The translations under genes and the position numbers were made by a program. DNA of 64,000 nt from Anaerolineae bacterium. GTDB lineage: Bacteria > Chloroflexota > Anaerolineae > DUEN01. The stretch is taken from contig DAOUBB010000045.1 of assembly GCA_034432955.1 (NCBI GenBank), forward strand, positions 24,302-88,301. Direction: 5' to 3'. The notes beneath the pieces are model-generated. The model did not search any database, was not told where the DNA came from, and was given only the letters and a program-made list of their open reading frames with translations. The first letter of the stretch is position 1. The number at the start of each line of letters is the position of its first letter. This document shows, piece by piece, positions 1 through 62,030 of this stretch.

Positions 1-1104
1 CGCGCCAGAGGGTAAGCCTTCGAGCCGCGAACGGACGACGACGGCCGCGTGAGCCAGTCGCGGCTCATAGATGGCGGTCCAGGGCACATGCTGGTACGTG
101 CGAGCCAGGGCGGTCCACAGCCACTGCGGCAGCTTGCCGCTGAGGACCAGGCCGCGGTCCCTGGGCACCGGGGGCGTGGCTAGCTCTTCCAGCTCGCTGT
201 AGTCTACATAGTGATAAGGCAGGGTGAACTCCAGGCGCGTATGATCTCCCTCAACGAAGGCCACCGCCTGTAAAGGGGAGCGACGGGCGGGCGGGGCGAT
301 GGGGAGGGACGTCGTGACCACCCATCCCAGCCGTGGGTCGAATTGGTAGAAATCGTGCGGGTACGTGTGGCAGGCGATGGCGGCGTACAGCCAGGCAGGC
401 CCGCGCCCATACAGGGAGATCGGCGTGTCCGCAGGCAGATAGGCGAGCACCGCCGGAAGGTGGCCAGGCTGCCACGCTCTGGGATCCACTCGCAGGGTTT
501 CGGCCAGCCGGTTGAGCTCGACCACGATCTCCGTGAGGGCCTGCGACAGGTGGAGGCCACGCAGCTCCTCGGCCGTATAGGCGAAGAGGTTTTCCAGAAG
601 GTTGACGAGCGCATCAAAAGTGTCTCCCGGGCGATATCCCGATCGGTCGAGCCCGGAGATGGTGCCCCGGAGTATGGGATGTTCCGCTTCGATGTGATCT
701 TGCCCCTCGAGCGTGGAGCGGAGGTCCGCGATCACGATCAGGTTGTGGCGCTGGGCCAGGCTGGACCAGAAATCGTGGGTCTCGGCATCACGGCTGAGAA
801 GTATGGCGTGAGTGCAGTGATCGAAAATCTCCTCCTGAGACGGTTGGGGCAGGCCTCCCACGTCCACGAGCATGGGCACAAGGCGGCTCGCGAGGCTCTG
901 GCACATGGCATCCACCCATCTTTGCGTGAAGGGGCCTTTGATGCGAATGGCGCGCACCACCTCTGTATTGGCCTGATACGACCAGTCGCCTTCGCCGTCT
1001 GGTGCCGCGCGCAGCAGATAATGGTCTACCTCGCGGGCGCGCAACTCCTGCGATAGATGATACGCCAGGGTGGACTTGCCACTGTGAGGAGGTCCGCCGA
1101 TCAT
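1..1104 (-). CDS. P-loop NTPase, kinase-like (partial; C-terminus runs off the window start)
   Basis: Checked codon by codon: no reverse-strand stop from 1104 down to 1. ATG at 1104..1102 (alternative in-frame GTG at 1125, preceded by GGGAGGTGA). N-terminus MIGGPPHSGKSTLAYHL is a Walker A motif, followed about 25 aa later by APDGEGDW, a spacing typical of P-loop kinases (APS kinase, PNK, KTI12-like). Absent from the ORF track because it is edge-truncated. The listed + ORF 343..1056 is its antisense shadow. Confidence 0.6.
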   Translation of the reverse strand, partial: MIGGPPHSGKSTLAYHLSQELRAREVDHYLLRAAPDGEGDWSYQANTEVVRAIRIKGPFTQRWVDAMCQSLASRLVPMLVDVGGLPQPSQEEIFDHCTHAILLSRDAETHDFWSSLAQRHNLIVIADLRSTLEGQDHIEAEHPILRGTISGLDRSGYRPGDTFDALVNLLENLFAYTAEELRGLHLSQALTEIVVELNRLAETLRVDPRAWQPGHLPAVLAYLPADTPISLYGRGPAWLYAAIACHTYPHDFYQFDPRLGWVVTTSLPIAPPARRSPLQAVAFVEGDHTRLEFTLPYHYVDYSELEELATPPVPRDRGLVLSGKLPQWLWTALARTYQHVPWTAIYEPRLAHAAVVVRSRLEGLPSGA

Positions 1105-1344
1105 GACAGCGGGTAAGGTGTCCACGGGTCATCACCTCCCGATTTCGCCGTCCGCGGCCGTGACCGCGAACAGCAGGCTGAGCGTGGTTAGTTTTTCACC
1201 CTATCTTCCCAATATCACAAGATGAGTTTTGCCGCGTTGCGTCCTTTTACCAACACGCCTCTGCTGCTCTTCGCCTCTGCGGTGAGAAGGCTTTTGGCAG
1301 GGACTTCCCTTTTTACTCATGAAAGCACACGGGAGGCAGCGAAG

Positions 1345-2229
1345 ATGGCTGTTTCGGCAGTGGAAAGCGTGATGATCGCCACCATTGGCGGCCAGCCCCA
1401 GGTTTTGACTTTCGCCCTGGATGCCCTGCTGGCGCGCGGCGAAGTGGTGCGTGAGGTGATCGTTCTGCACCTGTCGGCGGACGATTCTCGCCTGCGGCGT
1501 TCGCTGGCGCTGTTGAGCGCCGAGTTTGCTGGCGATCGCTATGCCGGGCGTCCTTGTCGGTACCGGCTGGTGCCTATACGCGCGGATGGGCGTCGCCTGG
1601 AGGATATCCGTTCGGAGGTGGACGCGGACGCCGCCTGGCGAGCCGTTCATGAGCTGATTGCCGAGCTGAAGAGCATGAGCGAGCGGCCGCTGCACCTCTG
1701 CATCGCGGGGGGGCGTCGCCTGCTGGCGCTGGTAGCGTTGTCGGCCGCCATGCTGCACTTTGGGCATCAGGATCAGGTGTGGCATATTTACACGCCGCCA
1801 GAGTTTCTGGAGCGGGCGCGGGATGGCGCGATCATGCACGCCCGGCCAGAAGATGGGGTGCGCCTGATCCGGGTGCCGCTGGTGCCGTGGGGCGCTCAAT
1901 TTCCAGCCTTGCGGGAGCTGGCACAGATGCGTCCCGGGGGCCTCGGTAGAGTCGTTGTGAGCTCGGAAATGGAGCGACAGCGCTGTGAGGCTGTGTGGCG
2001 TGCATTGACCGAGCGCGAGCGCGAGGTGTTGCGCTGTTTCGCGGGCGGATTGACGCCGCAAGAGGTGGCGGAGGAGCTGGTGATCTCGTTGAGCACGGTG
2101 AACACCCATAAAACCCGGATTTTGGCGACATGCCGGCAGGTGTGGACGTTGGGCGAGCATGAAAGGTTGACTTATCATTTTCTCCGCGAGCATTTTCATC
2201 CATTCGTCCAGAGCTTATCGAAACTATAG
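1345..2229 (+). CDS. LuxR/GerE-family transcriptional regulator with N-terminal CARF-like Rossmann sensor domain
   Basis: GGGAGG sits 8 nt upstream of the ATG at 1345 (MAVSAV...). C-terminal TEREREVLRCFAGGLTPQEVAEELVISLSTVNTHKTRI is a LuxR-type HTH. The N-terminal beta1-loop VMIATIGGQPQVLTFALDAL, EVIVLHLSADDS and LHLCIAGGRRLLALVA match CARF-domain topology (compare Csm6 VSVHTLGTSPEA / VYVLHT / DLTSGTKAMSAGL). Confidence 0.65.
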   Translation: MAVSAVESVMIATIGGQPQVLTFALDALLARGEVVREVIVLHLSADDSRLRRSLALLSAEFAGDRYAGRPCRYRLVPIRADGRRLEDIRSEVDADAAWRAVHELIAELKSMSERPLHLCIAGGRRLLALVALSAAMLHFGHQDQVWHIYTPPEFLERARDGAIMHARPEDGVRLIRVPLVPWGAQFPALRELAQMRPGGLGRVVVSSEMERQRCEAVWRALTEREREVLRCFAGGLTPQEVAEELVISLSTVNTHKTRILATCRQVWTLGEHERLTYHFLREHFHPFVQSLSKL

Positions 2230-2388: not shown

Positions 2389-4107
2389 ATGGTGGATGGA
2401 CACTGGCGATCGGCGGGCGCTCCACAACCGGTGGTCGAGGCGTCTGAATCCCTCCAGGTAGCGCAGAACCTGTGTTGGCAGGCCGTGTCCGATTTTCAGG
2501 CCGGCCGCTATGAGGATGCGATCTCGCGCCTCCAGGAAGCGCTTGGCACCCATCCTGGCCTGCATGACGTGCACTTTCTGCTGGGGGCGTGTTATCAGAA
2601 GCTAGGCCGGCTGGAGGAAGCCGCGCGCGAAGCGGAGGTCGAGCTTCAGGCCCATCCGGATCACGTGCTGGCCTGGAGCCTGCTCGGGCAGGTCCGGCTC
2701 AGCCAGGGGCGCATCGCCGAAGCTTCCGCCGCGTTTCAGCGAGTGCAGCAGCTTGAACCGGAGAGCTGGGAAGCTCAATTCCACCTGGACTCTGCTTCCG
2801 AAGCGTCCTTTTCCACGATCCCCCCCGCGCAGTGGCCCTCGGTTTCGGTTTGCATGATCGTGCGCGACGAGGAGACGACGTTGCCCCGTTGTTTGAACTC
2901 TCTGGGCGATCTGGCGAGCCAGCTCGTGGTGGTAGATACCGGCTCTCAAGATCGGACGGTGGAGATCGCTCGCTCCTTTGGCGCTGAGGTCTACTGCTTC
3001 CAATGGGTGGATGATTTCTCGGCGGCTCGCAATGAGTCGCTGCGCTACGCCCGCGGCGAGTGGATCTTCTGGTTGGACGCGGACGATGAGTTGAGCCCGG
3101 AGGCGGTGGCGCAGATCAAGAATGCGATCGCGTCGGGGCAGGCCGACGCGTACGTCTGCCATGTTGCCAGCCGACTGCCGAACGGGACGGAAGACATCGT
3201 CCCGCACACACGGCTGTTCCGGAATGGGCTGGGCATTCGCTTCCACGGTCGCGTTCACGAGTCGGTCTGGGCGGATGTCATCGCCAAGGGGCTCAAGGCG
3301 CTGGATACGGACATCGTGATCGTCCATCACGGGTACGAGGCTGACTGGGCCGTTTTGCGCAGCAAGCACGAGCGGAATCTGGCGTATGTGGAGAAGGAGC
3401 TCGAACGCTATCCGGACAACCCGGGGCTGCTGTGCTATTTCGGCATGGCCAAGATGGGGTTGGGGGATGTCGCTGCGGGCGAAGCGGCCCTGCGTCGGGT
3501 GATCGAGTTGCCGCCCACGGATGTGCGGTTTGACTCGTTCCGGTTTTGGGCTTGGGCCTCCCTGATCCGCCTGTACCTCGCGCGCGGGGAGGATGAGACA
3601 GCCCGGCAGATGGTGAACCGGGCATTGGGGGAATTTCCCGGGCATCCGTATTTTTTGGCGCTGAAGGGGGACATGGCGTTTCGGTCCGGTGAGCTGTCTG
3701 AGGCGTGGTCGCTGTGGCGTGCGGCCTATGAGCGGGATCATGCGCTGGTGTGGGGATATCGTCCGGACCGAAAGTCGCTGGCGTTGGGGATTGCGGCGGG
3801 CTGTGCGATGACAGGAGACAGGATCGAGGAGACGCGGTGGTTTGAGCGGGCGGGACGAGTGGGTGAAGAGGAAGTGAAAGTCTATTTGCAGTTTGTGCCG
3901 CGGCTGATTCGACAGGGGAGGCTGGTGGAGACCCAGAGGGTGCTGGAGGCGGCCCGAGCGCATTGGCCGCGCCACCCGATGGTGTGGAAGGGGCTGGCGC
4001 TGGTGTACGAATATCATGGGCAGGCCAGCGCTGCCCGCGAGGCGTGGATGCGTGCGGCGGAGTGTAGCTTGTCCGGGGAAGAGGTTGCGCCTCACGTGGC
4101 CGCCTGA
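2389..4107 (+). CDS. TPR-repeat protein fused to family 2 glycosyltransferase
   Basis: GGGGAGG sits 7 nt before the ATG at 2389 (MVDGHW...). N-terminal TPR-like repeats. GT2 core VSVCMIVRDEETTLPRCLNSL ... VVDTGSQDRT ... WLDADDEL. C-terminal TPR. Confidence 0.75.
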   Translation: MVDGHWRSAGAPQPVVEASESLQVAQNLCWQAVSDFQAGRYEDAISRLQEALGTHPGLHDVHFLLGACYQKLGRLEEAAREAEVELQAHPDHVLAWSLLGQVRLSQGRIAEASAAFQRVQQLEPESWEAQFHLDSASEASFSTIPPAQWPSVSVCMIVRDEETTLPRCLNSLGDLASQLVVVDTGSQDRTVEIARSFGAEVYCFQWVDDFSAARNESLRYARGEWIFWLDADDELSPEAVAQIKNAIASGQADAYVCHVASRLPNGTEDIVPHTRLFRNGLGIRFHGRVHESVWADVIAKGLKALDTDIVIVHHGYEADWAVLRSKHERNLAYVEKELERYPDNPGLLCYFGMAKMGLGDVAAGEAALRRVIELPPTDVRFDSFRFWAWASLIRLYLARGEDETARQMVNRALGEFPGHPYFLALKGDMAFRSGELSEAWSLWRAAYERDHALVWGYRPDRKSLALGIAAGCAMTGDRIEETRWFERAGRVGEEEVKVYLQFVPRLIRQGRLVETQRVLEAARAHWPRHPMVWKGLALVYEYHGQASAAREAWMRAAECSLSGEEVAPHVAA

Positions 4108-8325: not shown

Positions 8326-8398
8326 GCGATCCGACCCTTTCGATGCGCGGGTGGTTTCCCTGTTGAGCGTTGCTACGCCACCCGTCGTGTTTTTTGGT

Positions 8399-8433
8399 CA
8401 GGTGCCCGGCACCTCAAAGGTGCCGGGCACCTG
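8399..8433. repeat. 35-bp perfect palindromic element CAGGTGCCCGGCACCTCAAAGGTGCCGGGCACCTG (copy 1)
   Basis: Exact hairpin with 16-bp arms and a 3-nt loop. Identical copies at 8614 and 20234. Lies between convergent genes. Confidence 0.85.
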
Positions 8434-8613: not shown

Positions 8614-8648
8614 CAGGTGCCCGGCACCTCAAAGGTGCCGGGCACCTG
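8614..8648. repeat. 35-bp perfect palindromic element (copy 2)
   Basis: Identical to copy 1. Ends 3 nt before the PhyH-family gene stop (8651). Confidence 0.85.
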
Positions 8649-10081: not shown

Positions 10082-12583
10082 ATGGATCGGATGATTGCGA
10101 TCAAAGCATTGGCCTTCAGCTTACGCTTTCGGTTGATCGTACTCGTCCTCATCGCCGGACTGCCCGGGATGGGGCTGGCGGTGTACAACGCCAACCAGCA
10201 GATGGAAGAGGCCCGCCACCGGGCGCAAGAACAGATGCTGCACCTGGCCCTTCTGACCGCCGGTGAGCACCAGGCCCTGGTCACCAGCACACGGCAACTG
10301 CTGGCCACGCTGGCCGAACTGCCCGATCTGCGCCCCGGCCGCGGCGGGGACTGCGACGCCCTGCTCGCCCGTCTGCTGGCCATCCACTCGATCTATGCCA
10401 ACTTCGGCGTCGCTAACCTGGCGGGCGACGTCGTTTGCTCTGCCGTACCACTGACCGCGCCCGTGAATGCCTCTGACCGGGCCTGGTTTATCCGCACCCT
10501 GCAAGCCCGCGACTTCGCCGTCGGCGATTACCAGATCGGCCGCATCACCGGCAAAGCGGTCATCGTCTTCGGTTATCCGATCCTGGACGAACGCGGCGAA
10601 ATGGCCGCTGTGGCCTTCGCCGCGCTGGGGTTGGGCTGGTTGGAGCGGCTCACCGAAAGCGCTGCCCTGCCAGAAGAGGCCGTGTACACGGTTGTGGACC
10701 AGCAAGGGGTGATCCTGGCGCGGCATCCGGACGGCGCGGAGTGGATTGGCAAACCCTCGCCGGAGGGTTCCGTCGTCGCTCGCGTGCTGGGCGCGACCGC
10801 CGAAGGCCTGGCCGAAGCCCCGGGCGTGGACGGCGTGACTCGCCTCTACGCCTATGCTCCACTGCTGGCGGGCGGCGCGCCCGCCGCATACGTGATCGTC
10901 GGAATGCCGCTTGCGCAGGCATATGCAGCGGTGAATCGTAGCCTGTGGTGGAACCTGGGCTTCCTGGGGAGCGCGGTCCTGCTGGCGCTGGCCGCGGCGT
11001 GGATCGGCGACGAGGCGTTCCTGCTGCAGCGGATCCATGCCCTGCTGGCCGCCACGCGGCGTATAGCCAGGGGTGACCTGAGCGCCCGCACCGGTGTACG
11101 CTATGGGATGGGTGAACTGAGCCAACTCGCCCGCGCCTTCGACGAGATGGCGGAGAGTCTGGAAAGACAACACCGACAGCGGGAGCGAGCGGAGGTGGCC
11201 TTGCGGGAAAGCCAGCAACGTCTGGCCCATCTGCTTGCCGTCAGCCCGGCTATCATCTACACCCTCAACCCTGACGGTTGCGTGCCCACTTGGATCAGTC
11301 CCAACGTCGCCTTTCGGCTGGGGTACACGCCCGAAGAGGCGTTACAGCCCCGTTGGTGGGCCGATCACCTGCACCCAGAGGATCGCGAGCAAGCCCTGGC
11401 CAGGGCAGCCGGCATATTTGCCGAGGGCCACATGGTGCTTGAGTATCGTTTCTTCAAGAAGGATGGGAAACTGATCTGGGTGCACGATGAGCTCCGGCTC
11501 CTGCGCGATGAGCAGGGCAACCCCCTGGCGATCGTGGGGGCGTGGACCGACATCACCGGGCGTAAGCAGGCCGAGGAGCAACTACGCCTGCAGGCCACCG
11601 CTCTGGAGACGGCCGCGGATGCCATCTTCATCACCGACCGCGACGGGTTCACCCAGTGGGTCAACCCAGCCTTTACCGCCCTCACCGGCTACACGCCCGA
11701 GGAAGCCGTTGGCCAGACCATGCGGCTGCTGAAATCAGGTCAGCACGATCAGGCCTTCTACCAGAACCTGTGGCAGACCCTCCTTAGCGGTCAGGTCTGG
11801 CGCGGCGAGCTCGTCAATCGCCGCAAAGATGGCTCGCTCTATGATGCCGAGGAGATCATCGCCCCGGTGCGGGCGAGCAACAGGGAGATCACCCACTTCG
11901 TGGCCATCCAACGCGACATCACCGAGCGCAAGCGGCTGACGAGACAACTCGCCCAACAGGTAGAAACTCTGACCACCCTTTACCACGGGGCCCGGAAGCT
12001 TGCGGAAAGCCTGGACATGGAGGCCGTGGCTCAAGGAGTGGCCCAATTCTGTGTGGAGAACCTGGGCGTACGTCTGGCCTGGCTGGGCCGCGCCGAAGCA
12101 GACGGCCGCGTGACCCTCATCTCTCAGTTCCCCACCGACCATCCCTACCCGTCCCAGATCACCGTGCGTTGGGATGAGACCCCCCAAGGGCAGGGGCCCA
12201 CCGGCCGCGCCCTCCGCAGCGGCCTTCCAGAGGTCATCGCCGATGTGCTCGCCGACCCAGGCTTCGCCCCCTGGCGCCCCATCGCCGAGCGATACGGATT
12301 CCGAGCAGCGCCGTCTTCCCGCTCATCAGCCGCGGGCACACCTTCGGGACGCTCAACCTGTACAGCGACGTCCCCGGCTTCTTCACCGCCGAGCGGGTGG
12401 AGGCCTTCCAGGCTCTGGCCTACCAGGCGGGGGCGGCCCTGGAGAACGCCCGTCTGTACGCGGACGCGCTGCGCTGCCTCCAGCGGGTGCAGGCCTTGCG
12501 CAACATTGATCTGGCCATCACCGGCAGCCTGGACCCGCGCGTCACCCTGCGCATCCTGCTGGACGAGGTTACCCAGCAACTGA
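10082..12583 (+). CDS. Multi-sensor histidine kinase, N-terminal portion (TM, Cache-like sensor, HAMP, PAS x2, start of GAF); reading frame is lost near 12304
   Basis: TM segment FRLIVLVLIAGLPGMGLAV. HAMP region LLAATRRIARGDLSARTG...FDEMAESLERQH. PAS-like blocks. Translation is recognisable up to ...IAERYGFR and then turns to low-complexity nonsense. See the frameshift finding. Confidence 0.6.
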   Translation: MDRMIAIKALAFSLRFRLIVLVLIAGLPGMGLAVYNANQQMEEARHRAQEQMLHLALLTAGEHQALVTSTRQLLATLAELPDLRPGRGGDCDALLARLLAIHSIYANFGVANLAGDVVCSAVPLTAPVNASDRAWFIRTLQARDFAVGDYQIGRITGKAVIVFGYPILDERGEMAAVAFAALGLGWLERLTESAALPEEAVYTVVDQQGVILARHPDGAEWIGKPSPEGSVVARVLGATAEGLAEAPGVDGVTRLYAYAPLLAGGAPAAYVIVGMPLAQAYAAVNRSLWWNLGFLGSAVLLALAAAWIGDEAFLLQRIHALLAATRRIARGDLSARTGVRYGMGELSQLARAFDEMAESLERQHRQRERAEVALRESQQRLAHLLAVSPAIIYTLNPDGCVPTWISPNVAFRLGYTPEEALQPRWWADHLHPEDREQALARAAGIFAEGHMVLEYRFFKKDGKLIWVHDELRLLRDEQGNPLAIVGAWTDITGRKQAEEQLRLQATALETAADAIFITDRDGFTQWVNPAFTALTGYTPEEAVGQTMRLLKSGQHDQAFYQNLWQTLLSGQVWRGELVNRRKDGSLYDAEEIIAPVRASNREITHFVAIQRDITERKRLTRQLAQQVETLTTLYHGARKLAESLDMEAVAQGVAQFCVENLGVRLAWLGRAEADGRVTLISQFPTDHPYPSQITVRWDETPQGQGPTGRALRSGLPEVIADVLADPGFAPWRPIAERYGFRAAPSSRSSAAGTPSGRSTCTATSPASSPPSGWRPSRLWPTRRGRPWRTPVCTRTRCAASSGCRPCATLIWPSPAAWTRASPCASCWTRLPSN

Positions 12584-13791
12584 AGGTGGACGCTGCCGCG
12601 GTGCTGTTGTACAATCCTCACACTCAGGAATTGGAACATGCCGCCAGCCGTGGCTTTCAGGGCGGCGCCATCGAGCGTGTCCGCTTGCGCCTGGGCGAAG
12701 GTTACGCTGGCCGCGCGGCCCTGGAGCGCCGCCCGCTGGGCGTCGGCGATCTGGCCCAGGCCCGGGACTTCAAGCGGGCCCACTTGCTCCAGGAGGAAGG
12801 CTTTGTGGCCTACTATGCTGCGCCGCTGATTGCCCGCGGGCGCGTGCTGGGGGTGTTGGAGACTTTCCACCGCACCCCGCGAGATTTCGATGGGGAATGG
12901 CTGGAGTTCCTGGGGGCGCTGGCCGGACAGACGGCTCTCGCCTTGGAGAACGCCGGCCTCTACGCGGAGTTGCAGAAGTACACCGCGGAGCTGGAGCGCC
13001 GCGTAGCCGAGCGCACCGCCGAGCTCCAGGCCGCCAACGAACAGTTGCGCCAGGCCCACGAGGAGGTGAGCCGCGCCTTGGAGCGGGAACGGGAGCTGAA
13101 CGAGCTCAAGACCCGCTTCGTCTCCATGGTCTCCCACGAGTTTCGCACCCCTCTGACGGCCATTCTCTCCTCGGCCGAGCTGCTGGAACACTACAGCTTC
13201 CGCTGGCCTGAGGAGAAGAAGCTGACACACCTGCAACGCATCCGGGACACGGTGCAGCGCATGATGAAGCTGCTGGACGATGTGCTGGTGGTAAGCCGGT
13301 CTGAAGCCGGCCGGCTGGCGTTCAAGCCACAGCCGCTGGACCTGATCCCCTTCTGTCGCGACCTGGTGGAGGAGTTTCAACTGGAGATGGGGGCGCAGCA
13401 CCGCCTGATATTGGACCTGACTGGGCTGAAGGATCCGGAGAGCCTGCCGGCAGTGATGGACGAGCAACTCCTGCACCACATCCTGCGCAACCTGCTCTCC
13501 AACGCCATCAAGTACTCTCCGGCTGGCAGCGAGGTGCGGCTGGCGCTGTGGCGGCAAGGGGAGCGCGTGGTCTTCGAGGTGGAAGATCACGGCATTGGCA
13601 TCCCGGCGGCGGATCAGGCGCGATTGTTCGAGCCGTTCCACCGGGCTGGCAACGTGGGCTCGACGCCGGGCACCGGCCTCGGGCTACACATCGTCAAGCG
13701 GGCGGTGGACCTGCACGGCGGAGCGATCGCAGTGCAGAGTGAAGTGGATAAAGGGACTGTCGTGACGGTGGAACTGCCGATAGCCCCATAG
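12397..13791 (+). CDS. Histidine kinase C-terminal portion (GAF x2, HisKA, HATPase_c); continuation of the 10082 gene in the -1 frame
   Basis: GAF motifs. H-box SMVSHEFRTPLTAI. N-box LLSNAIKYS. G-boxes DHGIGI and GTGLGLHIVKRAV. This frame is open and homologous from about 12304 (SAVFPLISRGHTFGTLNLY...), upstream of the first ATG. Confidence 0.7.
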   Translation: MEAFQALAYQAGAALENARLYADALRCLQRVQALRNIDLAITGSLDPRVTLRILLDEVTQQLKVDAAAVLLYNPHTQELEHAASRGFQGGAIERVRLRLGEGYAGRAALERRPLGVGDLAQARDFKRAHLLQEEGFVAYYAAPLIARGRVLGVLETFHRTPRDFDGEWLEFLGALAGQTALALENAGLYAELQKYTAELERRVAERTAELQAANEQLRQAHEEVSRALERERELNELKTRFVSMVSHEFRTPLTAILSSAELLEHYSFRWPEEKKLTHLQRIRDTVQRMMKLLDDVLVVSRSEAGRLAFKPQPLDLIPFCRDLVEEFQLEMGAQHRLILDLTGLKDPESLPAVMDEQLLHHILRNLLSNAIKYSPAGSEVRLALWRQGERVVFEVEDHGIGIPAADQARLFEPFHRAGNVGSTPGTGLGLHIVKRAVDLHGGAIAVQSEVDKGTVVTVELPIAP

Positions 13792-13794
13792 AAG

Positions 13795-13998
13795 TGGCGC
13801 GGGCTTTAGCCCGCCATGGTGGCGTGGGCTTCAGCCCGCCCTGTGGCGCGGGCTTTAGCCCGCACCTTGCGGCCTGAAGGCCGCGCCACACTTGTGGGGT
13901 GGGCTTCAGCCCGCATGGGCGGCCTGAAGGCCGCGCCACACTCGTGGCGTGGGCTTTAGCCCGCCGTGGAGTAGGCTTGAGCCCGCCTTGCGCCACAA
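13795..13998. repeat. REP array (about 8-9 tandem copies of the 21-bp hairpin repeat GTGGCGYGGGCTTYAGCCCGC, in both orientations)
   Basis: Units separated by 1-5 nt. The reverse-orientation units read GCGGCCTGAAGGCCGCGCCACA. Each unit contains an internal hairpin (GGGCT-TTA-AGCCC). Confidence 0.85.
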
Positions 13999-14010
13999 AG
14001 AGACTCTAAC

Positions 14011-14688
14011 ATGGCTCAAGAAAAACACTACTACCGACGCGATCTACCGCACTACCATCCGGCTGACTCCGTCTTCTTCATCACCTTCCGCCTGGCCAAC
14101 TCCCTGCCCGCTCACATTTGGCAGGAACTTCTTGCTGAACGTGAACGGGAGCGCCGGGAATTGCAAGGGAAGCACTCCGGTGCAGCATATCGGCAGGCGC
14201 TTTACGAGCTAGAAAAGAAACATTTCGGTCGTTTCGACACCTGGCTGGATCGTTGCACAGAGGGCCCACGATGGCTGGCGGAGGAGCGCATCGCCCAGAT
14301 CGTCGCCCATGAGATCCATGCGTTAGATGGTCATCGCTATCATTTGTTGGCATACTGTGTCATGTCGAACCACGTGCATCTCTTGATTGACACCACAGGA
14401 TATGGGCATTCTTCCCCGCCTGGCGCAACGAGCACTGCGTCCTATCCTTTGGCCGAGACCTTGCGACTTCTGAAGGGAAGGACGGCGCGCTATTGCAACC
14501 AGGCCTTGGGGCGCAGTGGCATCTTCTGGCATGATGAAAGTTATGACCATGTTGTGCGCGATGAGGTGGAACTGAGACGCATTGTGTGGTATATTGCGAA
14601 CAACCCAGTGAAGGCTGGTCTGGTGAAAGATTGGAAGGAGTGGAAGTTCACTTTTGTTTCAACGGATATAATGGATTACATGTTCTGA
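14011..14688 (+). CDS. REP-associated tyrosine transposase (RAYT; IS200/IS605-like Y1 HuH transposase)
   Basis: HuH motif SNHVHLLID. C-terminal WHDESYDHVVRDE matches the RAYT W..(Y)(D/E)H.IR(D/N) tyrosine motif. Flanked on both sides by REP arrays. Confidence 0.8.
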   Translation: MAQEKHYYRRDLPHYHPADSVFFITFRLANSLPAHIWQELLAERERERRELQGKHSGAAYRQALYELEKKHFGRFDTWLDRCTEGPRWLAEERIAQIVAHEIHALDGHRYHLLAYCVMSNHVHLLIDTTGYGHSSPPGATSTASYPLAETLRLLKGRTARYCNQALGRSGIFWHDESYDHVVRDEVELRRIVWYIANNPVKAGLVKDWKEWKFTFVSTDIMDYMF

Positions 14689-14906
14689 AGGCCGCGCCGT
14701 GGTGTGGGCTTTAGCCCGCCATGGTGGCGGCGTGGGGTGGGCTTCAGCCCGCATGGGCGGCCTGAAGGCCGCGCCACACTCGTGGGGTGGGCTTCAGCCC
14801 GCCGTGGTGGCGTGGGCTTTAGCCCGCATGGGCGGCCTGAAGGCCGCGCCACATTCGGCCTGAAGGCCGCGCCACAGCCATGTGTGGCCTGAAGGCTGCG
14901 CCACAT
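14687..14906. repeat. REP array (about 9 copies, mixed orientation) downstream of RAYT
   Basis: Same 21-bp unit family as 13795..13998. Starts overlapping the RAYT stop codon. Confidence 0.85.
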
Positions 14907-14922
14907 TCGATCAGGAGGAGAT

Positions 14923-16014
14923 ATGACCACTATTCTCGTGATCGAAGACGAGGAATTCGTCCGAGAGAACCTCGTGGACCTGCTAGACGCCGAGGGCTAT
15001 CAAGTCATCAGCGCGGCCAACGGCCGCGTCGGCGTCCAATTGGCCCGACAGCACCTGCCCGACCTGATCCTGTGCGACATCCTGATGCCCGAACTCGACG
15101 GCTATGGAGTCTATCGGGAGCTGCTCCAGGACCCGGTCACGGCCACGATCCCTTTCATCTTCCTCACCGCCAAGGCTACCCCATCCGACGTGCGGGCCGG
15201 CATGGCCCTGGGCGCCGACGATTACCTCACCAAGCCCTTCACGCGCGAGGATCTGCTCCAGGCTATCACGGCCCGCCTGGCCAGACGGGAGATGATCGTC
15301 CGGCAATTTCAGAATAAGATGGACGAGCTGCGTCAGAGCATGGCCAAGATGCTGCCGCACGAGCTGCGCACGCCCCTCACCGGCATCCTGGGCTTTTCGT
15401 CCGTCCTGCTTGAAGACTACGCCACGCTGTCGTCGGAGGAGATCCGGAGGATCGCCGAGAGCATCCACCGCGCCGGCCAGCGCCTGTATCGGCTGGTACA
15501 GAAGTTCCTGCTGTATGCCGAGATAGAGCTGACCGCCAGGGATCCGGAGCAGATTCAGGCGTTGCGGTGCGGCCTGGTGAACTTGACAGCCCCGCTCATC
15601 GAGAACGCGGCGCTCCAGAAAGCCCAGGAGGCCAGACGCAGCGCCGACCTGGTCCTGGACTTGCAGGACGGGCCGGCTCAGATCGCCGAGCCGTATCTGA
15701 GCTTCATCTTGGAAGAGCTGATCGAGAACGCCTTTGAGTTCTCGCCGGCCGGGACGCCAGTGCAGGTCAGCAGCCGCGTTGGGGATCGCACCCTGACCAT
15801 CACGATCACCGACCGGGGGCGCGGCATGACCCCGGAACAGATCGCCGCGGTGGGCGCATATGTGCAGTTCGAGCGTAAGCGGTATGAGCAACAAGGCCAG
15901 GGGCTGGGACTGGCGCTGGCCAAACGCATCGCTGAATTGCACGGCGGCGAGCTGAGCATCGAAAGCGTCCCCGGCCAACGGACCACCGTTCGCGTCACCT
16001 TGCCGATGGTTTGA
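14923..16014 (+). CDS. Hybrid response-regulator receiver / histidine kinase (REC-HisKA-HATPase_c)
   Basis: Receiver LILCDILMPELDG with conserved Asp. Conserved Lys in LTKPF. H-box LPHELRTPLTGILGF. ATPase boxes ELIENAFEF, DRGRGM and GQGLGLALAKRIAELHGG. Confidence 0.75.
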   Translation: MTTILVIEDEEFVRENLVDLLDAEGYQVISAANGRVGVQLARQHLPDLILCDILMPELDGYGVYRELLQDPVTATIPFIFLTAKATPSDVRAGMALGADDYLTKPFTREDLLQAITARLARREMIVRQFQNKMDELRQSMAKMLPHELRTPLTGILGFSSVLLEDYATLSSEEIRRIAESIHRAGQRLYRLVQKFLLYAEIELTARDPEQIQALRCGLVNLTAPLIENAALQKAQEARRSADLVLDLQDGPAQIAEPYLSFILEELIENAFEFSPAGTPVQVSSRVGDRTLTITITDRGRGMTPEQIAAVGAYVQFERKRYEQQGQGLGLALAKRIAELHGGELSIESVPGQRTTVRVTLPMV

Positions 16015-20233: not shown

Positions 20234-20268
20234 CAGGTGCCCGGCACCTCAAAGGTGCCGGGCACCTG
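20234..20268. repeat. 35-bp perfect palindromic element (copy 3)
   Basis: Identical to 8399 and 8614. Located in the divergent intergenic region between the hydrolase and the TPR-PD40 gene. Confidence 0.85.
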
Positions 20269-20378
20269 ATATCGCAGGCTACAAAGCTTGCGGGAGGGTT
20301 TCCAGTGCGTGCGATCATTTGGACACGCTTCCGGATTGCGAGTATAATCCCACGGATTGTGGGAGGAGACGATCACCC

Positions 20379-30851: not shown

Positions 30852-30990
30852 GGCACGCTGCCTTCATGCCTTCACAAGCTCAGGATGTACAAGGGTAGAT
30901 GAGGGCAATGCCCTCGTCTATCCTGAAGGACGATCACAAAGGCCACCGTAGGATGGTCTCGCAGCGCGAGCTGAAGCTCATCCCACCCCT

Positions 30991-31002
30991 GTGGCGCGAG
31001 CT

Positions 31003-31011
<9 letters not shown>
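30991..31011 (+). repeat. Single degenerate REP copy (GTGGCGCGAGCTTTAGCTCGC) overlapping the hemE stop codon
   Basis: Same family as the RAYT-flanking REPs. The 3' half encodes the last hemE codons plus stop. Confidence 0.6.
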
Positions 31012-58551: not shown

Positions 58552-58738
58552 ACAGGCCCCCTTTGCGCCAAGGCGGGATGGATCCCGCCCCTACTTCGTG
58601 GGCGCAAGCGGGCTGAAGCCCACACCACACGGGAAAAAGCGCCCGGCTCAGCGCACTGCTGAGTGCCTCGGAACCAGATTCCCATTCCACTCAAACGAAT
58701 TTCGCGACATCCTCTTAGCAAGGGGCAGGCAGCGGGCA

Positions 58739-61906: not shown

Positions 61907-61953
61907 GTGGCGCGGGCTTCAGCTTGCCTGTGGCGGCCGGAGGGCCGCGCCAC
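61907..61953. repeat. Two degenerate REP units (GTGGCGCGGGCTTCAGCTTGCC / GTGGCGGCCGGAGGGCCGCGCCAC)
   Basis: Same family as the RAYT-flanking repeats. Sit directly upstream of the S41 gene start. Confidence 0.55.
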
Positions 61954-61993
61954 CCTTCTCACCCGTCATAAGAACCTATCCGAAAACCTCGCT

Positions 61994-62030
<37 letters not shown>

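Follow-up and report, generated by a model that had tools for sequence, protein, structure and literature searches.

Among the closest described systems to the locus reported here is the REPtron of Escherichia coli K-12, in which tnpA-REP (yafM/rayT), the gene of a REP-associated tyrosine transposase (RAYT), is flanked by bacterial interspersed mosaic elements (BIMEs) composed of Y and Z2 repetitive extragenic palindromes (REPs) (structure 4ER8; PMC3479197, PMC2817692, PMC6006769). Dimorphic REPs, RAYTs flanked by BIMEs, and REPs that abut stop codons are likewise known (Nunvar et al. 2010, PMC2817692; Quentin et al. 2018, PMC6006769). Here we describe a locus in a 64-kb stretch of contig DAOUBB010000045.1 (assembly GCA_034432955.1; hereafter the window), where the region 13794-14904 consists of a single open reading frame (ORF; 14011-14688, + strand, 225 aa) between two blocks made almost wholly of 21-nt units. 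An earlier note, made from the DNA letters alone, had read the ORF as a RAYT embedded in arrays of its own REPs, and the present analysis bears this out: REP_Tyr_transpos is the best family model for the protein, 4ER8 its top fold match, its motif is Y---NP, and REPs lie on both sides. It is therefore very probable that the locus is a REPtron, that is, a RAYT with BIME-like clusters of cognate REP hairpins on both sides. To judge from sequence comparison, the RAYT, of which there is one copy in the 64 kb, is probably a vertically inherited HUH/Y1 single-strand DNA nuclease-ligase of the TnpA-REP type.

As in the E. coli REPtron, a lone HUH/Y1 gene has REP clusters on both sides in which two subtypes point in opposite directions, the hairpin foot bears a GT[AG]G tetranucleotide, the catalytic H-u-H, tyrosine and asparagine are kept, and 4ER8 is the best structural match. 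In contrast with E. coli, the protein is 225 rather than 165 aa long, with a helical hairpin of 48 residues following beta1 and a loop of 18 residues following the HuH strand; its REPs have a GTGG rather than a GTAG head and a short stem (6-7 bp) that is perfect and without bulges, the equivalent of H123 is an alanine, and the locus holds 16-19 REPs compared to three REP pairs. By its motifs, the RAYT appears closest to TnpA-Y1 subclass 2.4 (PMC6006769), a subclass scattered over many phyla, with which it shares NH[IFV]H (here NHVH), YIxNNP (here YIANNP), a similar length class and GT[AG]G REPs flanking the gene. It differs from this subclass in its W motif (WH, where the family has WH or WQ and the subclass consensus is WQ), in a large helical insertion between beta1 and alphaA that is not listed for subclass 2.4, and in having short rather than 'long/double-foot' REPs, although double-foot forms do occur at two loci with homologous RAYTs (L003 and L117). 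The REP doublet (REPIN)-RAYT system of Pseudomonas fluorescens SBW25 (PMC3116915, PMC5581495) is similar in that its RAYT is vertically inherited and single-copy (here, probably the former, with one copy in the window), its REPs are mostly inverted doublets able to form long hairpins, and the flanking 16-mers are abundant; those flanking the RAYT here are among the most abundant of the region. Unlike SBW25, the doublet spacers of 4-5 nt are very short for a REPIN, and the protein belongs to another subclass.

The features of the locus are given below. Full-length REPs, degenerate ones included, were found by pattern search and recovered by a covariance model.

13794-13814, + strand: type A REP (GTGGCGCGGGCTTTAGCCCGC), 2 nt past the TAG stop of the upstream kinase gene; 36.5 bits with the covariance model
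13819-13839, + strand: type A REP
13843-13863, + strand: type A REP, in a tail-to-tail doublet with 13869-13889 (fold -23.1 kcal/mol, z -6.1)
13869-13889, - strand: type B REP (GTGGCGCGGCCTTCAGGCCGC)
13894-13914, + strand: type A REP
13919-13939, - strand: type B REP
13944-13964, + strand: type A REP
13966-14000, + strand: degenerate REP (GTGGAGTAGGCTTGAGCCCGC, 13966-13986) with a 3' extension (CTTGCGCCACAAAG); 28.6 bits with the covariance model
14011-14688, + strand: RAYT, a TnpA-REP-like HUH Y1 nuclease of 225 aa, assigned from sequence models, homologue alignment and predicted fold
14686-14698, - strand: truncated type B REP whose loop provides the TGA stop of the RAYT; read directly from the sequence
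14699-14719, + strand: type A REP
14722-14731, + strand: REP head fragment (GTGGCGGC); read directly from the sequence
14732-14752, + strand: type A REP
14757-14777, - strand: type B REP
14782-14802, + strand: type A REP, first member of a 75-nt A-A-B unit found once more in a second assembly
14807-14827, + strand: type A REP
14832-14852, - strand: type B REP
14855-14875, - strand: type B REP with 1 mismatch
14884-14904, - strand: degenerate type B REP, ending 8 nt ahead of the AGGAGGA ribosome-binding site of the downstream gene for a receiver-histidine kinase (REC-HK)

A degenerate 21-mer query (GTGGCGYGGSCTTYAGSCCGC, at most 3 mismatches) found 20 matches in the window, compared to 0.07 expected from dinucleotide-preserving shuffles. 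Sixteen of the 20 fall at the locus, eight upstream of the RAYT (13794-13986) and eight downstream (14699-14904), and three fragments accompany these full copies (13987-14000, either a 3' extension or a head remnant; 14686-14698; 14722-14731), so that the earlier count of about 17 was near the truth. Gaps between neighboring REPs measure 1-5 nt, as had been claimed, with the exception of one gap of 8 nt and one of 12 nt.

Regularly spaced short palindromes might also suggest a CRISPR-like array, or an artefact of assembly, and in the same direction point Cas-like domain proteins (Csx3; NE0113/CARF) encoded approximately 12 kb away and the breaking of several related contigs at their arrays. 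We regard this explanation as exceedingly improbable, given that single copies and doublets of these repeats are present elsewhere, and that two independent assemblies agree on the upstream array and differ downstream by one 75-nt unit. A CRISPR array consists of direct repeats of 23-50 nt with unique spacers of similar length; 21-nt units on both strands, separated by 1-12 nt, rule it out, in agreement with the earlier remark that the spacers are too short. A scan of the whole window with Rfam returned three tRNAs only, with no match over the arrays.

Each REP consists of a GTGG head, one nucleotide, and then a 6-7 bp stem, a layout repeated in the eight copies on either side of the RAYT, and the head is invariant in 20/20 aligned copies. 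At the locus, the 11 copies of type A (GTGGCGYGGGCTTYAGCCCGC, GGGC..GCCC stem) all lie on the + strand, and those of type B (GTGGCGCGGCCTTCAGGCCGC, GGCC..GGCC stem), five full and one truncated, all lie on the - strand. While both strands are thus used, as the earlier note had stated, each subtype is confined to one of them at the locus. The two types differ by a compensated stem swap, G10-C17 versus C10-G17. In the 20-copy alignment the 6-bp stem is paired in 95% of cells, compared to approximately 30% in controls slid by 1-3 columns, and stem changes are double-sided, with pair 10-17 being G-C or C-G and pair 9-18 being G-C or A-T. The palindrome is therefore upheld by compensatory changes.

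A single REP unit is predicted to form a DNA hairpin of -7.3 kcal/mol, while neighboring units in the arrays, whether A+/B- tail-to-tail or B-/A+ head-to-head, are predicted to form 46-47-nt hairpins of -19 to -23 kcal/mol (z -4.7 to -6.1; doublets overall, z -3 to -6). A+/B- doublets with 4-5 nt spacers are found in the arrays and at 61907-61953. On the question, raised earlier, of whether the REP pairs form REPIN doublets, inverted pairs that would be able to fold into one long hairpin do recur. The order A+B-A+B- is seen at 13843-13939, and runs in the same orientation (A+A+A+, B-B-B-) occur as well; the proposed REPIN/BIME-like arrangement fits the inverted doublets and this stretch, with BIME-type alternation being partial.

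The best NCBIfam model for the protein is NF047646 REP_Tyr_transpos (68.2 bits), whose alignment covers only model positions 24-145 because of the N-terminal insertion, and Pfam Y1_Tnp is just passed (25.9 bits, cut-off 23). E. coli TnpA-REP (4ER8) was the only match in a sequence search of the PDB. An AlphaFold2 model built with 50 homologues has a mean pLDDT of 88.5, and Foldseek comparison of this model with the PDB places 4er8_A on top (E 2.2e-7, TM 0.69 per target, 18% identity in the structural alignment), with the IS608, ISDra2 and IS200 transposases behind it (E ~1e-3). Residues N120, H121, H123, W173, E176, Y178, D179, H180, Y194, N198 and K201-L204 are invariant in the 50 homologues. 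The HuH motif is H121-V-H123 (NHVH), and the catalytic tyrosine is Y194, in YIANNP together with N198. The active site of E. coli TnpA-REP comprises H59/H61, Y115, N119, H123 and E161 (Messing et al., PMC3479197), and a pairwise alignment with 4ER8 reproduces that numbering: H121/H123 correspond to H59/H61, W173 to W94 and N198 to N119, H101 also has a counterpart, and Y115 aligns with Y194, which is therefore the catalytic tyrosine. The segment WHDESYDHVVRDE corresponds to the W94...H101...R104 region, which reads the GTAG tetranucleotide in E. coli. The earlier note had named HVHLL and WHDESYDHVVRDE as RAYT motifs; both are present in ORF 14011-14688, but the catalytic tyrosine is Y194 and not Y178 of SYDH.

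In the AlphaFold2 model, a helical hairpin of residues 34-81 (helices 34-54 and 57-81) is inserted between beta1 and the first core helix, and a variable, low-confidence loop (residues 128-145) lies between the HuH strand and the next helix. The covariance model gave no match in the 128-145 loop that would point to an origin from a REP. Several homologues are longer than the RAYT and match it in two pieces, with a break near residues 126-140: one (P0251) carries four in-frame tandem 36-residue units (residues ~130-275) between the HuH motif and the next helix, and in two others (P0288 and P0313) this point is occupied by long inserts. Insertions of REPs within subclass 2.4 genes have been reported previously (PMC6006769).

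An insertion of the IS200/IS605 type, in which the ORF would be TnpA, the hairpins its subterminal ends, and the whole a recent arrival between two kinase genes, shares with the locus the HUH/Y1 fold and, as in IS608 and ISDra2, the logic of recognizing hairpins on single-stranded DNA. It would also suit the composition of the RAYT gene, whose GC content (53.5%; 0.61 at third codon positions, GC3) is far under that of its neighbors (64-66%; GC3 0.84) and is the only hint of a foreign origin; an orthologue on a related contig (L116) is similarly low. Nevertheless, this explanation is very unlikely. The protein reaches 13.9 bits with the IS200 model, whose cut-off is 55; YIANNP fits Y---NP, the signature of class-2 TnpA-Y1 proteins (Quentin et al., PMC6006769), and not the Y---Q of IS200. 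No tnpB adjoins the RAYT, the window contains no second RAYT copy by tblastn and no multi-copy behavior, the gene occupies the same place upstream of the REC-HK gene in lineages only ~75% identical in protein, and elsewhere the hairpins stand without the gene, having dispersed independently of it. The earlier note had named clustering with IS200/IS605 TnpA and a tnpB partner as what would speak against a RAYT, and the model score, the missing Y---Q and the lack of an adjacent tnpB answer it; taken with copy number in the window and synteny, they largely refute an IS200/IS605 element.

Outside the locus, the covariance model, built on the 20 copies and run unfiltered over the window, recovered all 20 and added one copy at 30966-30986 (-). 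Three sites result:

30966-31011, both strands: head-to-head REP doublet, both arms with a compensated GAGC/GCTC stem (fold -16.4 kcal/mol, z -6.1)
58608-58628, - strand: type A REP within a 151-nt composite repeat (58568-58718); pattern search and covariance model
61907-61953, both strands: tail-to-tail A+/B- doublet (partner 61933-61953) between divergent S41 peptidase and Wzy-like genes

The first lies between convergent genes and overlaps the stop of the minus-strand URO-D (hemE) gene ending at 31003, the second follows an ABC exporter gene at 77 nt, with the convergent smpB 110 nt away, and the third is just upstream of the S41 peptidase gene. Extension into the neighboring genes, which added ~5.9 kb to the left of the window (L125), yielded one more REP, at L125:1878-1898, between phoU and an ABC transporter gene and ~4 kb left of the window start; to the right, extension gave a 1.9-kb contig only. 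All of these dispersed sites are extragenic or at gene ends. A weak covariance match at 3949-3975 (21 bits), inside a coding ORF, is doubtful. The earlier note had listed single degenerate copies at 30991, 58608 and 61907; the sites and their gene contexts (at the hemE stop, after the ABC exporter, upstream of the S41 protease) were given correctly, but two are inverted doublets and the third lies in the composite repeat. The 21-mer is accordingly not confined to the locus, being present at three other sites in the window and one ~4 kb to its left and, beyond these, in the syntenic array of a related lineage (L121) and in multiple copies in genomes of several phyla.

The 151-nt composite repeat at 58568-58718 (-) recurs at L125:1787-1937 with 93% identity, as seen in a second assembly. 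Within it are a hairpin with a T-run that resembles a terminator, one GTGG REP, the motif TTGCGCCCACAAAG and one GTAG REP, and both copies are located just 3' of a same-strand gene (smpB and phoU, respectively). The extension TTGCGCC(C)ACAAAG of the last REP before the RAYT (13966-14000) is common to this repeat. A second set of palindromes, headed by GTAG, adjoins each dispersed GTGG REP (30893-30925, 61993-62027, and 58572-58594 on the - strand); examples are GGGTAGGCGAAGGCATTGCCTTCGCCTACCC, a perfect 'double-foot' palindrome, and GTAGGGGCGGGATCCATCCCGCC, and the three copies differ in sequence. These may represent another REP family whose RAYT lies elsewhere in the genome.

The locus was compared with a second assembly and with related contigs. 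Identity to the second assembly, GCA_964426405.1, reaches 100% over 10.8 kb upstream and 99.86% downstream. The upstream arrays agree base for base, and the downstream array of GCA_964426405.1 has one additional 75-nt A-A-B unit, giving 11 REPs compared to 8. The 75-nt difference reflects either a genuine polymorphism in array length or a collapse during assembly. Among related lineages, which were traced by way of the RAYT or the REC-HK protein, L116 has the RAYT (76% identical) directly upstream of the REC-HK gene (product 73% identical), with GTACCGCGACCTTCAGGTCGC (+) and GTACCGCGGCATTCATGCCGC (-) flanking the RAYT. In L120 (REC-HK 83%), an array of GTAGGGCGAGCTTCAGCTCGC (+) and GTACTGCGAGCTTTAGCTCGC (-) follows the RAYT C-terminus and precedes REC-HK. 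L121 (REC-HK 79%) opens inside an (A+B-)x4 array with A and B units as in the window, followed by REC-HK, and L123/L124 (REC-HK 78%) have GAGC-type REPs upstream of REC-HK and no RAYT in the 743-nt gap. The syntenic RAYTs are ~70-77% identical, their REPs have GTGG, GTAC or GTAG heads, and the stems differ too: REP stems and heads have turned over between syntenic lineages. Non-syntenic homologues (L002, L003, L117; 64-68% identity) have AT-rich flanking hairpins with GTAA, GTAT or GTAG heads, e.g., GTAAGTCGAAATTAATTTCGAC. The plan common to all of these loci is GT[AG]N, 0-1 nt, and a 7-8-bp stem in which T/A closes a 2-nt loop (TY/TA).

For the RAYT, comparison of the window with L116 gives a dN of 0.16 and a dS of 1.85 (ratio ~0.09); for REC-HK, the values are 0.18 and 0.85. 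By these values, the RAYT gene is old at this site and under purifying selection, and its REPs were replaced or remodeled in the course of that time. The low GC3 of the RAYT is unexpected, given that synteny has lasted long enough for dS to reach saturation.

The tandem organization of the arrays gives rise to a different interpretation. Tandem Repeats Finder reports periods of 25, 50, 22, 33 and 23 nt in the arrays, and part of their architecture is accordingly higher-order tandem repetition. The RAYT could then be a relic or co-opted, with the REP clusters kept and resized by replication slippage and recombination only and serving the host as RNA or DNA structures. The 25-, 50- and 75-nt periodicity with the 75-nt length polymorphism would suit this, as would the REPs that stay upstream of REC-HK without a RAYT in L123, and the long-term synteny suits a host-integrated element. 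In addition, the first REP stands 2 nt past the kinase stop and another lies over the hemE stop; in E. coli, a REP that lies no more than ~15 nt from a stop codon can reduce translation of the gene before it. Protection of mRNA 3' ends, translational down-tuning at an abutted stop and transcriptional insulation between the kinase genes are examples of host roles that could be imagined. We consider it unlikely that the clusters are host structures only, as the invariant catalytic residues and the dN/dS of ~0.09 argue for a working enzyme, the REP sequences change along with the RAYT lineage, and identical or compensated doublets at unlinked extragenic sites need a mechanism of dispersal. A structural role and a REPtron are compatible, and the one does not exclude the other.

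Several points weigh against the identification of the locus as a REPtron. REPs are defined by extragenic high-copy dispersal, typically >100 copies per genome, and dispersal here rests on four sites in ~70 kb; the 6-7 bp stem is also at the short end of published REP definitions. The REP_Tyr_transpos score falls below the curated cut-off of 80 bits. Where E. coli has the metal ligand H123, the protein has A202, and no clear equivalent of the C-terminal E161 is seen. Plain tandem duplication, with periods of 25, 50 and 75 nt, explains part of the array structure in place of transposition. Finally, a scan of 13400-15300 for promoter and terminator consensus sequences, which is uninformative for this organism, detected neither a + strand promoter for the RAYT nor a terminator within the arrays.

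Based on current knowledge of E. coli TnpA-REP, the protein of the REPtron would bind a REP hairpin extruded on single-stranded DNA, for instance on the lagging-strand template, and would read the 5' GTGG tetranucleotide at the hairpin foot. Metal bound by H121/H123, together with Y194, may then cut and rejoin single-stranded DNA beside REPs, a reaction that could spread them, mostly as inverted doublets (REPINs), to extragenic sites, while the arrays beside the gene would lengthen and shorten locally as multi-REP units undergo tandem duplication or slippage. Cleavage, its site, mobilization and effects on the expression of neighboring genes are all inferred from the described systems (PMC3479197, PMC3116915, PMC5581495).

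The protein tails following WKFTY are variable among RAYT lineages, and in all lineages examined the stop codon of the RAYT gene falls within the REP next downstream, either in the loop or in the head (window 14686-14698; L116:831-851; L120:169-193; L003:5651-5676; L117:5651-5675). A full HMMER scan of 1.84 billion cluster representatives (clusters at 50% identity) found 8,502 clusters with E <= 1e-3, of which 2,897 had E <= 1e-10 and 316 had E <= 1e-30, and the top matches are full-length proteins of 200-230 aa. The closest homologues are from metagenome-assembled genomes (MAGs) of Chloroflexota/Anaerolineales, and several are called 'REP element-mobilizing transposase RayT' by JGI.

These data could be combined into a broader proposal, which we consider rather unlikely as a whole: that the RAYT belongs to a very large undescribed sub-lineage (316 clusters at E <= 1e-30; 2,897 at E <= 1e-10) marked by the 48-residue helical hairpin after beta1, that its REP scaffold, GT[AG]N-(N)-GCG-NNN-T/TY/A-NNN-CGC, is conserved in at least five phyla, and that head specificity (GTGG, GTAC and GTAG in syntenic orthologues) is reset via the variable C-terminal tail and not via the conserved W/H/D/H/R recognition residues. 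If the tail does set head specificity, insertion of a REP at the 3' end of the gene could retune which REPs the enzyme recognizes, given that the tail is encoded across the first downstream REP in every lineage examined.

To our knowledge, RAYT/REP systems have been studied almost only in Proteobacteria. The locus and its relatives offer a natural comparison series from an uncultivated lineage, probably Chloroflexota by the names of the best protein matches, at one site upstream of REC-HK, and the switched heads at ~70-77% RAYT identity provide material for studying how the guide tetranucleotide and hairpin are read and at what rate REPs turn over. On the practical side, such arrays break short-read assemblies and produce spurious ORFs. 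Otherwise, existing knowledge is confirmed rather than changed.

The exact REP pattern was also scanned for in one genome per species, and more than 111 stretches matched. Among the matches listed, none of which is from the source genome, the pattern is multi-copy in MAGs of Bryobacteraceae, Solibacteraceae, Thermoanaerobaculia (two), Planctomycetota, Verrucomicrobia and Chloroflexota, and the per-genome consensus is nearly type A. Lone matches in other GC-rich genomes are, by our own estimate, compatible with chance. The head, the GCG clamp and the TTYA loop may be constrained by the RAYT lineage, with approximately three stem pairs free; with so few free pairs, GC-rich hosts would repeatedly reach the same 21-mer. 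Horizontal transfer is an alternative. Di Nocera et al. (PMC3733652) have described GTAG-type REP families common to distant organisms, Chloroflexi and the PVC group included, and sharing of REPs across phyla is therefore not new in kind.

Two of the stretches found elsewhere contain repeats worth recording. A Bryobacteraceae stretch (L079:1622-2340) encodes a shorter RAYT, ~30% identical, read in two frames and possibly frameshifted, with exact type A units on both sides followed by five 15-nt units that each end in the head complement CGCGCCAC. An Anaerolineae MAG (L115:1-560) has head-to-head doublets of the same family, with at least eight repeats at a 64-nt period, beside what by appearance is a tRNA-gene-like sequence; the array resembles the BIME-2 type.

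With respect to gene neighborhood, a GAF-HisKA-HATPase kinase gene is located upstream of the RAYT and a REC-HisKA-HATPase gene (14923-16014) downstream. The upstream sensor kinase is frameshifted inside its GAF domain (12290-12400), giving ORFs 10082-12583 and 12397-13791. In the earlier note, the RAYT block separates this kinase from a REC-HK hybrid that would belong to the same signalling operon, which may or may not hold for an upstream gene that is itself split. The frameshift is identical in both assemblies, implying either a real pseudogene or a shared sequencing error. ORFs of 62-100 aa at 13694-13996 (-), 14676-14930 (-) and 14704-14892 (+) are almost pure REP units and are likely apt to be called as spurious genes. 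Short-read contigs of relatives begin or end in or beside REP arrays (L121:1, L122:1, L124:1 and the end of L126), and the arrays thus appear to break short-read assemblies.

At window positions 1-2229 (L125:5831-8089), a Cas_csx3-domain protein is encoded together with a protein having Cas_NE0113 (CARF-like) and GerE/LuxR helix-turn-helix domains, and no CRISPR array was seen there. A 35-nt palindromic doublet, CAGGTGCCCGGCACCTCAAAGGTGCCGGGCACCTG, is present in three identical extragenic copies (8397-8431, 8614-8648 and 20235-20269) and forms a REPIN-like family of its own that lacks a GT[AG]G head.

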